Made by a program: the position numbers and the translations under genes. A DNA stretch of 64,000 nt, from assembly GCA_964252035.1 (NCBI GenBank), contig OZ176208.1; one strand, 5' to 3'. The first letter of the stretch is position 1, and each line of letters opens with the position of its first letter. This document shows, piece after piece, positions 1 through 11,254 of the stretch. The notes below the pieces were generated by a model. The model was given only the letters and a program-made list of their open reading frames with translations, was not told where the DNA came from and ran no database searches. The stretch is from Podarcis erhardii. Its lineage: Eukaryota.

Positions 1-154
1 TTCTTAACCTGAAGCACCATTTTAGCTAATGGGGCCTCCCGCTGCTGGAGCACGGTTTCTGTTCTCATCCTGAAGCAAAGTTCTTAACCCGAGGTACTAT
101 TTCTAGGTTAGCGGAGTCTGTAACCTGAAGCGTATGTAACCCAAGGTACCACAG
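1..154. mobile_element. Tigger/pogo-like MITE family 1 (partial at window start)
   Basis: Ends ...ccaaggtaccacag|ta. Same internal sequence as the other copies. Confidence 0.9.
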
Positions 155-183
155 TACTGCTGTCCTGTGTCTTATTTGGGTTC

Positions 184-595
184 TGTCAGGGAACTGACAT
201 CAGAGCGAGAAGCGGAGGCAGGGCTCCAGAGTGATGCCGGAGAGGGAATCAGCAAGGGGGAAGGAATTCAGCATGACACCAATAGAGAGGAGAGGGAGAT
301 AGAGGAATCGGTGTCAGGGCTCCGAGACCCTTCAACTGAAACTAGCGGAGAGAGCGCTGGCACGCCCCTGCCTTCCCCTTACTTGCGCAGACGCGTTCCG
401 CGCAGGGAACATAGGAGGAGACTTGGGGTCAAACAGCTTTTATGCTGGAAGAGATTCAAGAAACGCCCACTGACGGATTCTGCAAGTGACTAACAGGTCA
501 CGGAGGGCGAGCTCTAACCCTAAACATGATTGAGCAAGCAATCTAACTAATCTGAAGGCAATTTACGCACAAGTAACCCCCTCACAACCATTACA
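184..595. mobile_element. Solo LTR, family A (LTR retrotransposon, Gypsy-like), with internal ORF
   Basis: TGTCA...TTACA termini. Exact 5-bp TSD GGTTC at 179-183 and 596-600. Homologous to 3974-4427. Confidence 0.85.
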
Positions 596-1160
596 GGTTC
601 ATATACATATCCTGCCCATGGCTGCACTGAGCCTAGGCCCACAGTGGGGGCAAAGTAATGCATGGGAGCAACAGTGACGGGAAAGTTCACTTCTATGAAC
701 TTTTGTTCATGGTTGTCAAGAGCCAAGCCTTTGCTATTTAATGTTTTGGTCTGTCTTAAACCCAATGTAGAGAAATATTTGAAGATATGCTCACTGAAAC
801 CAACAGAGCACCTATTTCCCAGCATTTGTTTCTGAAGGAATCCTACAGGAGGTCTGTTTGAATAGCAGTAAGTATCTGTCACAACACAGCAAAGGAATGC
901 AGGTTCTTGAGGAGATAGGCATCATTATTTTTCTGACATTTGAATTACTTGCAATAAATCAGATGTAATAGCAAAAACTGTGGAGCTGGGAAAGCTAGTT
1001 GTATTAAAATTTGACACAACACTGTCCCTTGCTTCAGTGTTGTCCCCCAACCTGCAGAGGAAGACTAAACTGGAACTAAAAGGTGCAGAAAAAGTTTGGA
1101 GATAAAGTTCGCCTCCAGACAGTATTTTGCAGGAGGGATTCATTCACGTCCTGGAAAAGT

Positions 1161-1366
1161 TGTTGTTGTTGTTTAGTCGTTTAGTCATGGATCGCTGCCT
1201 TGTTGTGGCGTGAAGGGGCTTAAATAACTCAGAGAAGCTATGAGCTATGCCATGCAGGGCCACCCAAGATGGACAGGTCATTGTGAAGAGTTTTAACTAA
1301 ACATGATCCACCTGTAGTATGAACCAGCAAGCCACTCCCGTATCCCTGCCAAGAAAACAACACGGA
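1161..1366. mobile_element. BovB-derived chimera: inverted (CAA)n tail fused to BovB 5'-UTR-like sequence
   Basis: tgttgttgttgtttagtcgtttagtc is followed by gatcgctgccttgt...gggccacccaagatggacaggtc. 10-bp TSD CTGGAAAAGT at 1151-1160 and 1367-1376. Confidence 0.7.
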
Positions 1367-1428
1367 CTGGAAAAGTAGGTTTGCACAATTAAAGTGGATT
1401 ATAGCACACTGGAGCAATGTACCCACTT

Positions 1429-1430
<2 letters not shown>

Positions 1431-1473
<43 letters not shown>
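1431..1473. repeat. (AC)n microsatellite
   Basis: Direct reading. Confidence 0.98.
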
Positions 1474-1476
<3 letters not shown>

Positions 1477-1591
1477 CACACAGACATTTTATAGTTAAGA
1501 ATATGACACTAAAAGGTGTGAGATAAAAGATTGATTAGCGGGAAGATGTATAACCACCATGAAAACAGATCAGGGTGCACTACCCAAGGTA

Positions 1592-1803
1592 GTTACAGAC
1601 GCTTCAGGTTACAGACTCCGCTAACCCAAAAATAGTACCTTGGGTTAAGAACTTTGCTTCAGGATGAGAACAGAAATCGTGCGGTGGAGGTGCAGCGGCA
1701 GTGGGAGGCCCCATTAGCTAAAGTGGTGCTTCAGGTTAAGAACAGTTTCAGGTTAAGAACAGACCTCCAGAACGAATTAAGTTCTTAACCTGAGGTACCA
1801 CTG
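1592..1803. mobile_element. Tigger/pogo-like MITE family 1 (one end damaged)
   Basis: Ends gaggtaccactg|ta. Internal ctaaagtggtgcttcaggttaagaacagtttcaggttaagaac. Confidence 0.9.
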
Positions 1804-2322
1804 TACTCAATAAGCAGGTCATCTGGAGTAGCCCAAAGTTGTAAGAAAGAACAATATGTGAGACTATAGAGCAGGTTTACTGTTCACATTGCATGGAAGT
1901 TCAGGTTGCACCTTAACTTTCAGTTTCCTTGGGTACATGAATGAATATGTAAGCTCCTTAACTCATTCTTTAAACCTAGGTATTTTTGTTCCCAGGGAAT
2001 ATTTCTTCACACAGATGGGAAACAACTGGTTAGTCACTCCTAGTCTAGAAATGTATATGCACAGGAACACTGAAAGTTGCCTTGTGCTGAGTCGGACCAT
2101 AGGTCAATCTCAGTATTGTCCTCAATAACTGGCAGCAGCTCTGCAGGTTTTCAGATACGATTGTGGGTGCTGCCACACTAAAAGGCTGGGATGAGTGTTA
2201 TGTGGCACCTGTAATTGTGCCAGTTCTGCAGATTGGAGCGGTCGAGTGGACTTATATAGGGTAAGGCAGTTTTACAGGTAAACTGTTTCCAAACTGTTAT
2301 GGGCATGATACTGTATACTAAT

Positions 2323-2616
2323 TGTTAAGTTGTGGGCGATCATATCAGATGACACAATGATTCTTCAAACAGCTCTTGTTTATTCAAAGGCCAGAACAGA
2401 ACTGAACTGAGGAGCTCAGTCAGCCTGCTTATATAGAGCTCCAGAACAACGTAACTGTTGCAACTTTCTAAAACTATCCATTCACTGAACGTCACTTTCG
2501 ATCCTTCATTTGCATACAAACTATCCAATCACTGAACGTCACTTTCGATCCTTCATTTGCATAACTATCTACAGTATCCCCCTGCTGGCCCAGGGTGAGA
2601 ACTTCAGTACATAACA
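2323..2616 (-). mobile_element. Solo LTR, family B
   Basis: TGTTA...TAACA termini. Exact 5-bp TSD CTAAT at 2318-2322 and 2617-2621. The minus strand has TATA-like CTATATAAG and AATAAA. Internal 47-bp tandem duplication. Confidence 0.85.
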
Positions 2617-3973
2617 CTAATAGTAATACCTTGATCTTGGCCCAGTAGCAAACAGGCAACCAGTACAGAATGATTGGGAAAGGTGTTATATGCTGACATG
2701 GTCTCTTTTACATTGATTATATTATATTATATGGGACAGGTGGCAACCCTAACTCCTGCCGGCAACTGTGCTGCAGCATTCTCCAGCTTCCTGGTCAATC
2801 ACAAGGAAACAGTGGAGGTGCTGAAAGCAGTAATAACCCCCCATCACTCGTCATGAAGTTCTGAGAGTGTATCGTCTGATTTGGCAATTCCATTAACTTT
2901 TCAGGCTCAAAAGAACAAATGTTATAAAATGTCAGAGCTATCACTGCTTTTTTTGCCACTAAAGTTAACTGGCACTCTATTGAATGCTGTTAACTTTATA
3001 TTTCTTTAATGCTTCATCCTTCTCTGCAGTGATGTAAAGGTAGTATCAGGTGCCATTTTGAGAGGGTATCTTCAAAAAATACATAATCCTGTTCAGTAAC
3101 ATTGTTTTCTCTTCCGCACCCCTCTTTTTGCTTTTAACCACTTTATCACAACAGGCATCGCTAAGTTGTCAGTTTTATTTGCTTAGGGATGGGTGACACA
3201 TATAAGTAAATACAGTACTGTAGCTGTATGAGTGTCTAAACACATAGACTTTTATTTTTGTGCTTTCACAGAATAGTATTAATTTATTGGATTTTTTTTA
3301 AAAAAATGCTTCAGTTAGAATAATAAGCTTGCGTCCTACATTTTTGCTCTAAAGCAAACATTGTGTTTATAGGGCATCCTCCCTTGGCACTACTGAAGCA
3401 GGGGTTCAGAATGCTAGTTGGAAACTCATAGATGTTCCTTCCCACATAAATCTTTAGTAAAAGGGGGGAAATTTATGATCTGAAGAAAAAGAGTATTGTT
3501 TATACGTTTTTTTAAAAGTAGAGTTGGCAACAGAAACCACCATGCTCTATTAGAAATAACTTATATGCTTGGTGTTTCAGTCCTTCACATAACATAAATA
3601 TTGAATCTCCAAATATATTTAAATTGATACATTTATTTAAAAAACAGGATGCCAGCATGTCAAGTCCTGAAATTAATATTTGTGAATTACTAACTTAAAC
3701 CAATCACTGTGTAAAAAAATTATCGAAAGCACTACTAATTTAGCACATAATGTTGCATTGTGTGTTTACTAGTTCTTTTTACCCTGGTTTGCACATCACA
3801 CTAAACCAAACAATTGCTTACCATGAACGCATGACAGTGTAGCCTCTGGGAGAGGAGATTGCAACCACTTCATGCCTTCCTCGTTGGTGCACTGCACTAA
3901 GCCATGGTTTGATTCACCGTGTCATCAGAGTCCAAGCTTCTTCTTTTTTTATGCTCTCCCAGATAAACTCATG

Positions 3974-4427
3974 TGTCAGGGAACTGCCATCAGTACTGGA
4001 GGGGGAGCGCAAAAGCCAGAGGGATTCCAGAGAGCGTCCAGGGATCGGGAGGAGCAGCCCATCTTCTGGGGAAGAGAATCAGCGTAGCACCAGTGGAGAA
4101 GGGGGGCAGGTGGGGGAAGTGGCGAGGCGGTCCCATGACTCCTTGCCTGGGACCAGCGGGGAGAGTAGGGGTCCTCCGTTGCCCACGCCCTCTCTGCGCA
4201 GAAGGCTTTCACGCAGAGAGGGTAGGCAGAGACTAGGCGTCAAAGAACTTCTTTGCTGGAAGAAGTTTAAGAAACGCCCACTCACGGATTCTGCCAGCGA
4301 TTGAGTCAGCCACGGGTGAGTGGCTGTCCGGACAGAAGAGGTTCACTTTGGCAGCCCAGCCAGGTGTTTGCACCCAGCCAGGGAGTTAGGCACCTGCTTA
4401 CGCATGAGCAACCCTAGAACCATTACA
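3974..4427. mobile_element. Solo LTR, family A, second diverged copy
   Basis: TGTCAGGGAACTG...ACCATTACA termini. Exact 5-bp TSD TCATG at 3969-3973 and 4428-4432. Confidence 0.85.
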
Positions 4428-5242
4428 TCATGGTTAGTATAGAAAGAGATAAACCACATGAACCTGGGTTTGGATGATATGATAAACCAAACTGGCTTAG
4501 CTCACCACGACAGAGCAAATTTTTTTACTTTCTTTCTTTTTCTTTTCTTTTTTTTACAATAAAGTGGTAATCAATTACATTATGAATATTGAAGCTCAGA
4601 CAAAAATATAGCTATCAAATCAACATTTAGCATATACAATAATTCAAGTAGAATTTAAAACTAACCACCTCTAAACAAGTGTTTACAGGCCACTGTAAAA
4701 CCATTGTATTTTACCATTGTATTTTGCAGACTACTATTCTGGCAGTGTCTATCCTGGGAAGAAGTGACCTGCCTTCTTGTTGTTTTTGTTGTTTATTTTG
4801 TATGTGCTTTATTTTACACTGCATGCTACCCAGGGAACTATTGTTTTAGGGTAGCTTTTAAATCAAAGAAATAAACAAATTATAAAGTGCCTACAATTTT
4901 GGAAGTTCTGTAGAGATACTGAAGGATAAATCAGTACTTACTTGCAGGCTCACAATCTAATTATATGACACAAAAGGTGGCAACCGGGGGGGTGGGGGTG
5001 GAGTCTTTTCAGCAGTGGCAGAGGCCCAAGAGGCGCAACTGGCACTTACTTTGCTATCCCATTTTGTGTGCCAGGCAAAGACCTTTTTGTTCTGCCAGCG
5101 CCTTTTAAGCTCTGGCCTAGAACCATTCTAATCTGTTCTTCTTTCATTTCTGATTTTGTATTGTGTGTGTTGTTTCTCTTCTGCTCCGTACTGCCCTGGG
5201 AACCAACTGCTTGAAGCAGACGAAATCATAAATAAAATGCAT

Positions 5243-5310: not shown

Positions 5311-5560
5311 TAGTCAAAACAAAACAAATTCCTTCCAGTAGCACCTTAAAGACCAACTAAGTCAGTTCTTGGTATGAGCTTTCGTGTGCATGCACACTTC
5401 TTCAGATACATATCTTCTTCAGATATGTGTGTATCTGAAGAAGTGTGCATGCACACGAAAGCTCATACCAAGAACTGACTTAGTTGGTCTTTAAGGTGCT
5501 ACTGGAAGGAATTTGTTTTGTTTTGACTATGGCAGACCAACACGGCTACCTATCTGTAAC
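5311..5560. mobile_element. Penelope-like element end with perfect 100-bp inverted repeat
   Basis: Arms 5311-5410 and 5430-5529 are exact reverse complements and contain ttagttggtctttaaggtgctactgg (Penelope terminal motif). Flanking direct repeat TGACACTACTAGT at 5302-5314 and 5561-5573. Confidence 0.8.
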
Positions 5561-6624
5561 TGACACTACTAGTGTTAGCAGATGTAAAGAATCTGTGGCC
5601 CTTCAAGGTGAGAATCAACCCCTGCTCCCATCAATCCCAGACAGCTTAATGCAATGGGGAGGGGTTGTAGTCCAACAGCATCTTCAGGGCAACAGGTGGC
5701 CCACGTCTGCTGCAGCGTCACTTGAAAAAGCACCCAGTTTGACTTTTATTGTATCTGTTCAATACATGTAAGAGGAAAAAAATATCTGGGATGAGACATC
5801 CTCAGAAATGACAATTGTCTCTAGAAAAGGATAGTTGTGAAAAACTTCTTTTCTGGAAAAATATTCTGTTCCAAAGCACTGGATACTTAATGATGATAGC
5901 TAAATGGACTCCAGTCCTGCTGGCTGTGAAGGGCTTTTGCCTTCATGGTTTCCTTGTGGACCTTCAATCTGATCCTGAAGGGTCTTCTTGTTCTCTTAAC
6001 GTGTTCACCAGCTAGCATTGTAACTCTGTATTGCAGAATATACTTGGAACTCTATGGCTTACTTAAGCACATTTGGGAGAGACTGAGGGTAACCAGAGCC
6101 CAGTTGAGGCCTGATTAATCTGCCTGCCAAACTAATTATTGTATTTATTTATGTTTATTTCTAACAGGTGATTTCCCAGTCTGTTGCTTTTCTGTTGAAA
6201 AGATTGACTCAAGCCCGATTCAATGTTCCACAGGTGCTCAGAATTCTCAATAAGTGTCTTAACTATTGTTTTCTACGTCAATGTAAAATTTTATTATACA
6301 GTCAGATAAGAAAAAGACCACACCAAAATCATACCACTCTTAACATAAAATGAGTCAAATGTATAACACACATATAAAATAAGAATAGAAATAAAAATGA
6401 ATCAAAGTGCATCTTAAACTAACAGAATCCCTTTATGAATCTTTGCTGCAGAAAAATCTGGGGCTTTTCATTTCCATTATGAGCCAATGACTCAGTCAAA
6501 ATATCTAGAAAGGGCTTTGAAAGACAGGAATAAGTAATCTAATATGTTCATATCTTTAAAAGTTGCATGCAGACAACAAATGTATTTAAGCATCAACAGT
6601 TAGGTTATTCAAATAAAGCCAATA

Positions 6625-6855
6625 CAGTGGTACCTTGGGTTACAGATGCTTCAGGTTACAGACGCTTCAGGTTACAGACACCGCTAACCCAGAAATATTA
6701 CCTTAGGTTAAGAACTTTGCTTCAGGATGAGAACAGAAATCGCATGGCGGCAGTGGGAGGCCCAATTAGCTAAAGTGGTGCTTCAGGTTAAGAACAGTTT
6801 CAGGTTAAGAACGGACCTCCAGAACGAATTAAGTTCTTTACCCGAAGTACCACTG
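6625..6855. mobile_element. Tigger/pogo-like MITE family 1
   Basis: ta|cagtggtacc...gtaccactg|ta TIRs with TA TSD. Confidence 0.95.
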
Positions 6856-6959
6856 TAGATGAATTGGAGAGCAACCAAATTGGTTGAAGGTTATATTTAT
6901 TAAAATTAACCCCCCTTTCAGCTTTCTCATATTGCTTCCAATATATCACCAAACTGTTA

Positions 6960-10250: not shown

Positions 10251-10553
10251 TTAAACTGTGATACAATATGAGAGGACACTTTCTATTGTGGACCGGTTGA
10301 AGGAGGTCATCAATTGTTTTTTAACATTGTTCTTTCGCAAGGCCCAGAGGAAATGGAGTCTCTGTTGGGCCTTCCTAACCACCTGAGTTATATTGTTTTT
10401 CCAAGTGAGGTCTTCACTAAGGTAAACTCCCAGGAATTTAAAGGAAGAGACACTCTCCACACAACGCCCCATGATACACAACGTGGCTGGTTCCTCTCTC
10501 TTCCTCCAAAAGTCCAACACTATCTCCTTTGTCTTACTAATATTTAGGTGCAA
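10251..10553 (-). mobile_element. Rex1/Babar LINE reverse-transcriptase fragment
   Basis: KTKEIVLDF...VESVSSFKFLGVYLSEDLTW..NITQVVRKAQQRLHFL..LRK...STIESVLSYCITV is a Rex1-clade RT C-terminal motif set. Confidence 0.85.
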
Positions 10554-11254
10554 GTTATTCTCTAGTGCTGAAGAAGACTCATCTATAATTACATTTTAGG
10601 AATGATTCGTGTTCTTATGTAGCTGCGTTGTTTTATTCTTTCTCATGGCTCATGATCATATTATAAAGTAGTTTGTTCTATGTTATTAATCAAGCACTGC
10701 TAGAAGTTGTTTTTTGTTTTCCCATGTATTTCTTATGAGTTAAAAAAAAATGGTGTGGCACGAGCAAATTTTTATTCTGAAAGTGTGAGAACTGCTCCTT
10801 TACAGGAAGATGAAGTCGCGTAAGGGGACAGGGGCTAGTTACAAGCAATAGTGGGAACTGGGCATGAAGTGGCTGCAATGAATGGTTATCTCCAGTCATG
10901 AAGTGCACAGCTGTACTGTGTATCTGTCATGCCACAGAGAGCAAAGCAGTCCAGCAATGAAGAACCCACTGTCTGCTTTTGCATTTGTTTTTTTTACATG
11001 CATCTCTCTCAGTCATCTCATAGAATTAACAAGAGGACCTTATGTACTATGCTCTTCCATGATTCCATCCACACTGTCCTCTAAAATGATGCTTATCCCC
11101 AAAGTATGTCTTGTCATTCTCCTCTTGATAAGAAGCCTGATGCAATGTCACCTGCTGCTTGTGCAGTATATGGGTTTCCATATAAACAACTATTTTCCCC
11201 CTTAGTAGAGTCTTGCTCTAAACTTGCCTTTTGTAATCTGGCAAGTTGGTTGTG

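Follow-up and report, generated by a model that had tools for sequence, protein, structure and literature searches.

The 64,000 nt stretch of Podarcis erhardii DNA analysed here (contig OZ176208.1 of assembly GCA_964252035.1; "the window" below) contains near its left end two solo long terminal repeats (LTRs), both of which carry the last part of a retrotransposon pol reading frame. An earlier reading of the sequence alone (the sequence-only reading) had described two such LTRs, each with its own 5 bp target site duplication (TSD), and this is correct. The first, of subfamily A, is 412 nt long and occupies positions 184..595 of the plus strand (TGTCAGG...CCATTACA) between copies of GGTTC at 179..183 and 596..600; the second, of subfamily B, is 454 nt long and occupies 3974..4427, also on the plus strand, between copies of TCATG at 3969..3973 and 4428..4432. 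The equivalent reading frame claimed for both is present as well: it is open from the second base of each LTR and runs for 102 codons to a TAA at 491-493 in LTR A (185..493, plus strand) and for 109 codons to a TGA at 4302-4304 in LTR B (3975..4304, plus strand). The frame contains no in-frame Met in either window copy. In LTR A it encodes an acidic Gly/Ser linker and then a basic tail with the core motif RRxxxR[RK]ExRRR-hydrophobic-[GS]xxx-hydrophobic-LxW at 386..448 (plus strand), of which LTR B has a copy at 4197..4259 (plus strand). The two LTRs are related, as had been said, but their 5' halves are not especially hard to align; a gapped alignment works (blastn, 69% over 233 nt). A dispersed short repeat family is present on both strands of the window (1-158, 1576-1806, 6622-6857 and others), and one of its copies lies about 25 nt from solo LTR A.

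The P. erhardii genome (1.5 Gb) contains many relatives of these LTRs; first-look searches gave 2226 and 2584 candidates, and a degenerate pattern for C-W-K-x-F-K-K-R-P (nine codons) has 2259 exact genome matches, against 0 for the reversed control. Two-LTR copies are about 5.5 kb long and have the Ty3/Gypsy organization, with gag followed by protease, reverse transcriptase, RNase H and integrase (PR-RT-RH-IN) between direct LTRs, a polypurine tract (PPT) and a TSD; 86 of 94 solo LTRs also have an exact 5 bp TSD. The gag gene encodes a CCHC knuckle and has GGGAAAC at its end in A and B, and the pol domains are RT, RNase H, integrase, SH3 and a chromodomain (Pfam Chromo, E 3.5e-11) whose Foldseek matches are CBX/HP1 chromodomains. 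The ends of the window LTRs fit the motifs TGTYANR/CNTNACA given for Sushi LTRs (PMC3601003). Many of the two-LTR copies lie on one contig (C19), which also has insertion pairs with identical flanks (L026/L028, L046/L047 and L123/L124); the identical flanks suggest segmental duplication.

A tRNA primer was considered and rejected, since no tRNA-type site follows the 5' LTR; there is instead a self-complementary primer binding site (PBS) of 11 nt, two bases past the 5' LTR, which is complementary to a site inside the LTR. This self-primer site is at 469..479 in LTR A (ACTGACGGATT, plus strand, over codons P-L-T-D-S) and at 4280..4290 in LTR B (variant ACTCACGGATT, plus strand). Among 55 5' LTRs the pairing is perfect in 38, has one mismatch in 15 and two mismatches in 2, and variants of the primer site covary with the PBS: ACTGACGGATT in A and in a further group, M, ACTCACGGATT in B (the B-type PBS is AATCCGTGAGT) and ACTGTCGGATT in family C. 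The B-type elements (n=3) comprise one with perfect primer pairing and two with two mismatches; a more distant family, D, has three primer-site/PBS variants. The primer-PBS duplex appears in the minimum free energy fold. Tf1 is primed by the first 11 bases of its own RNA (PMC7175516), and self-priming is described as a mark of the Tf1/sushi group (PMC6317226). The window LTRs derive from a Ty3/Gypsy chromovirus with Tf1/sushi features, where "Tf1/sushi" refers to features and not to named members, as the RT trees hold lizard, fish, fungal and other matches.

In the two-LTR copies the frame that enters the LTR is that of Pol on the sense strand. The chromodomain is followed by about 100 acidic residues, by G-P-G-G-E-V-D across the PPT and then by V-R-E-L in the LTR. 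The sequence-only reading had left two origins for the tail, an integrase C-terminus read in frame through the PPT or an accessory ORF (open reading frame), and the two-LTR copies decide for the first; because the LTR frame is continuous with Pol, the accessory ORF, including a separate ORF of the nef/sag type with its own start, is excluded. The frame is open from the chromodomain to the LTR stop in 12 of 26 3'-LTR junctions. Ten family C elements, selected for long frames, are all open from the chromodomain on, and three of these are open over 1333 codons. The Pol stop comes 22 nt after the start of the primer site (19 nt in family D). We infer that the primer site marks the start of R, the predicted transcription start, in which case the whole of the predicted U3 would be coding. 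The region is covered by contigs of four runs presumed to be RNA, in which neither strand nor start can be seen.

Selection on the LTR-coded frame

The last ~45 codons of the LTR frame are conserved as protein. Between LTRs A and B the last 42 codons (365-490 versus 4176-4301) include 18 identical, 16 synonymous and 8 non-synonymous codons and a TAA/TGA difference at the stop, exactly as had been counted by hand, and their mismatches are distributed 10/4/19 over the three codon positions. When the same 18 transitions and 15 transversions were placed randomly in 20,000 runs, the mean was 5.3 synonymous codons and the maximum 15, so that the observed 16 has p ~5e-5. The self-primer site extends over the last 8 codons, which are thus under RNA constraint as well; with these removed, 12 synonymous codons are observed and 4.35 expected (p 6.5e-4). 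With all 42 codons included, the ratio of non-synonymous to synonymous substitution rates (dN/dS) comes to 0.12 between A and B and to 0.16 between A and C. It is again 0.12 between 21 copies of A and 27 of B in the 34 codons ahead of the primer site, a sample that contains only copies from the DNA or PBS search and from which four with indels or a missing anchor were dropped. Purifying selection across subfamilies, proposed from the two window copies with dN/dS as the check, thus holds even without the primer codons.

The ratio of non-synonymous to synonymous differences per site (pN/pS) is lowest in the Pol frame among the six frames, 0.26-0.43 versus 0.49-1.97 for the other five. Along Pol, the integrase core has a value of 0.09, the chromodomain 0.18-0.30, the linker that contains the FxGF motifs described below 0.23-0.40 and the opening 56 LTR codons 0.46-0.75, and the basic tail, at 0.28-0.36, comes close to the chromodomain; this regional set has just one B and one M element, and its A-B and B-C values rest on the single B copy. 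Stops and frameshifts, had they been frequent, would have spoken against a coding tail, and among 189 LTRs (94 solo, 55 5' and 40 3') the Pol frame is intact in 155 and broken in 34, while the other two plus frames are open in 3 and 9; the open-frame count is inflated because some of the A and C copies had been drawn by protein search. The length from LTR start to primer site is fixed in each family (classes of 279, 285 and 306 nt, counting classes with at least three copies), and length classes from primer site to LTR end differ by single-base steps. Selection acted on the replicating source elements, and the solo LTRs inherit its signal.

Related families and the FxGF motifs

The tail is shared with family D, whose RT is 71% identical and whose 760 nt LTR encodes 210 residues. 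The D tail aligns gap-free with those of the window family, codon phase preserved, in an alignment anchored solely on the primer site, with 9-12 of 30 residues identical; the shuffle p is <=9e-4 in 9 of 9 pairs, and DNA identity is 26-36 of 90. What the two have in common in register is the core motif of the window copies. The sequence-only reading had put the conserved core at K[RK]FKKRP, just downstream, and this did not survive the comparison: SRFRKRP stands at that position in family C and CGRGSDS in family D, while RRR-hydrophobic-[GS]xxx-hydrophobic-LxW stays, so that the supposed nuclear localization signal (NLS) is not the deepest conserved part. The classical monopartite NLS pattern, K-[KR]-x-[KR], is present in A, B and M and absent from that position in C and D. 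We note that a splice-donor-like GTAAG follows the 5' LTR in family D (loci L167-L178).

Family F (loci L255-L267) is 60-63% identical in RT, and its LTR codes for about 102 residues that are likewise acidic at first and then basic; its primer complement was observed in a single 5' LTR. One RT clade unites F, D, A, B and C (SH-like approximate likelihood ratio support 99; quick tree, 17 rows), and the stop closely follows the primer site in A-D and F. Family E (loci L247-L252 and L219-L240) is a young chromovirus outside this clade with an intact aromatic cage in its chromodomain, and its Pol runs 111-117 codons into the LTR, ending in RRSARL, the motif with which HMGN binds the acidic patch of the nucleosome (PMC12487698). 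The family E stop is 40 nt before the primer site and just before a TATA-like GATAAAA; the latter is 31 nt upstream of the 10 nt self-primer site, which indirectly supports the primer site as the RNA 5' end.

Between chromodomain and PPT, elements of A, B, M and C encode two helix-linker-FxGF motifs, such as FWEEQF-ATTDEEEED-FVGF and WREVF-ESSDDEECS-FRGF, with acidic Ser/Thr linkers of 8-9 residues; FxGF is intact in 29/32 and 32/34 motif matches. A TND-interacting motif (TIM) is defined as a short helix anchored by F/V/L/I, followed by an acidic Ser/Thr linker 8-16 residues long and optionally by FxGF, and FxGF is said to be present in all known LEDGF and HRP2 partners (PMC9987994). The lizard motifs fit this definition in their helix anchors (first motif), linker length and FxGF. 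Families D and F each have a single FxGF motif after the chromodomain, and that of F, LQEIF-EETDSEEEE-FIGF, is by sequence a textbook TIM. AlphaFold2, run on six aligned copies, predicts a folded chromodomain, a helix at 67-75 (LERFWEEQF) for the first motif, no helix (low confidence) for the second and disorder in the remainder, with a mean predicted local distance difference test score of 55. The host genome has PSIP1 IBD exons; one of its PSIP1 exons is 100% identical to Podarcis muralis records, as fits a lacertid lizard.

Of the cage aromatics of the chromodomain, the first and third are missing from A, B, C, D and F, and from D the cage Trp as well; in E the cage is complete. The three cage aromatics that define a type I chromodomain are thus not all there, and the pattern is that of type II as described in PMC3059260. 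Such a cage-less chromodomain likely no longer reads methyl-lysine.

Pfam contains no family that matches the LTR frame of either window copy, PDB sequences gave one tail match at E 0.52, the ESM Atlas gave no usable tail match (best 0.76), and none of 283 and 188 pattern matches in viral and metagenome contigs was confirmed. Beyond its own genome, matches to the tail came only from Podarcis muralis records and from Logan/ENA proteins (4 matches, 34 matches and the best 150 of 1559 listed). Likenesses of the tip to the menin-binding motif of KMT2A, to the BET-binding tail of MLV integrase and to PIP boxes were considered and set aside. Neither such a tail nor TIMs in the integrase of a retrotransposon were found described in the titles and abstract openings searched, a search to which the repeat databases Repbase, Dfam and GyDB did not belong. 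A Podarcis muralis phospholipid-transporting ATPase model (P0004) ends in the LTR peptide and is either a gene-model artefact or an exonised LTR. In piranha chromovirus proteins the chromodomain is followed by about 100 residues that include RGRP repeats (set P0013-P0015, P0033, P0035, P0162), and two other proteins of the same set end shortly after a GGG-DV stretch; P0162 has an FxGF motif and the C-terminus KGLLCWKRR.

Elsewhere in the window, a 46-47 nt unit is duplicated in tandem at 2471-2563, and a perfect 100 nt inverted repeat with a 19 nt spacer at 5311-5529 resembles a miniature inverted-repeat transposable element. The sole Pfam match among 37 ORFs of at least 100 codons is ALKBH8_N (E 3.7e-14) at 10254-10595 on the minus strand, an ORF we presume to be a fragment of a long interspersed nuclear element.

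A candidate chromatin tether and its rivals

Our favoured reading, to which we give a probability of roughly one half, is that the conserved and predicted-disordered LTR-coded tail of the integrase is a chromatin tether for the integration complex; it is probably a nuclear-entry signal too. Pol would be made by a -1 frameshift and the integrase would retain an extension of about 200 disordered residues, in which the FxGF motifs would bind LEDGF or HRP2, which read H3K36 methylation, at the TND/IBD and the arginine-rich LxW tip would bind nucleosomes or another chromatin factor. The tip may also import the integration complex. A broader proposal, which we put forward more tentatively and which is perhaps a one-in-three bet, is that the clade swapped methyl-lysine reading for mimicry of host motifs, with JPO2/IWS1-like TIMs on LEDGF/HRP2 and an LxW chromatin grip supplied by a wholly coding U3.

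Several points weigh against a tether. Its basic tail would fit an NLS or RNA binding equally well, and since it has no Pfam, PDB or Atlas match its binding partner is guessed from analogy. Constraint on the first ~55 LTR codons is weak (pN/pS 0.46-0.75). The linker before FxGF in family D is Ser/Thr-rich instead of acidic, and one D subgroup has a TAG two codons ahead of the usual stop, so the last residues are dispensable. The L-N codons of D overlap a TATA-like CTTAAA about 30 nt ahead of the primer site, and part of that conservation may therefore be at the DNA level. Lastly, a signal of neutral decay was sought in single-copy changes and none was seen in A and B, where pN/pS is 0.26 and 0.37 (24 and 17 changes; C has 0.72); many source lineages would explain this synonymous bias.

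The alternative that fares best, though we think it somewhat unlikely, is that the tail is solely an NLS for the integrase or pre-integration complex, for which the NLS of Ty1 integrase is the parallel. The 12-13 Lys/Arg in 26 residues and the KRFK/KKFK of A, B and M, which fits the monopartite rule, favour it; but KRFKKRP is lost in C and D, where L and W, both hydrophobic, stay in register, and a plain NLS needs neither of these. Less probable still is a role of the arginine-rich segment in binding RNA of the element itself, for packaging or for the self-priming structure, much as arginine-rich motifs bind RNA in viral RNA-binding proteins. A constant distance and phase between motif and primer site throughout A-D and a stop close after that site in A-D and F agree with such a role, but common descent also gives fixed spacing, Gag already has a CCHC knuckle, and the family E frame ends 40 nt before its primer site.

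It is very unlikely that the conservation reflects promoter or RNA-structure constraint in U3/R, with an open frame that merely places the stop near the 3' end and encodes a functionless peptide. This does hold for the last 8 codons, over the primer site, and it could draw on the TATA-like bases under L-N in D and on the weak constraint over the first half of the LTR-coded stretch. In the 34 codons that precede the primer site it is largely refuted: their synonymous sites are near saturation (proportion of synonymous differences 0.64-0.88 among A, B and C), the synonymous bias is strongest in the Pol frame, and protein identity with D survives near-random DNA identity. The idea with the slimmest chance, a separate accessory protein (nef/sag-like) or host co-option at solo LTRs, has in its favour an in-frame Met in the linker of many A, B, M and D copies, the single database gene model (P0004) that ends in the tail peptide and the constrained-looking single-copy changes, but there is no stop between integrase and tail, the window copies and the family C copies shown have no in-frame Met, and 34 of 189 copies are broken.

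Little is known about insertion-site choice by vertebrate Gypsy elements, and the tether reading now puts short peptides and named host domains to hand. If the broader proposal is true, a retrotransposon would have reached the lentiviral host tether along its own route, by a different binding mode. The predicted U3 of these LTRs doubles as promoter region and as coding sequence up to the self-primer, so that thousands of solo LTRs carry a coding signature able to mislead gene models.

Comparison with known systems

The lizard elements resemble the Tf1/sushi group (V-clade) in Gag, in GGGAAAC at the gag end (A, B), in the order PR-RT-RH-IN-chromodomain, in the 11 nt self-priming PBS and in the Sushi-type LTR ends; in the portions of the Tf1/sushi accounts consulted (PMC6317226, PMC3601003, PMC7175516) neither a long integrase tail coded by the LTR nor FxGF motifs are described. 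The FxGF motifs resemble the TIMs, or IBD-binding motifs, of JPO2, IWS1 and KMT2A in having a helix, an acidic Ser/Thr linker of 8-9 residues and FxGF, often two per protein, and the host domain these use is the one used by lentiviral integrases (PMC9987994). The lizard motifs differ in that they sit in a retrotransposon integrase, and are candidates for such binding by sequence only. Lentiviral integrases contact that host domain through their folded core.

Family E of the same genome has, near its LTR-coded end, an exact match to the RRSARL of HMGN and Dsup (PMC12487698). The window family has a different arginine-rich motif, for which a similar function may be supposed. Coding sequence overlaps U3 in HIV nef and MMTV sag also, there as separate accessory ORFs; the lizard LTR frame is the Pol frame itself.

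[quoted passage not shown] In CRM group A the CR motif replaces the chromodomain and priming is by tRNA-Met, whereas the lizard element keeps a cage-less chromodomain, followed by FxGF motifs, and has the 11 nt self-primer. With its chromodomain kept and no tRNA-Met site, the lizard element lies outside CRM group A. The hosts of the latter are plants, the lizard frame covers the whole predicted U3, and the likeness drawn here is one of layout; in that respect the arrangement of plant CRM elements is paralleled in an animal lineage.

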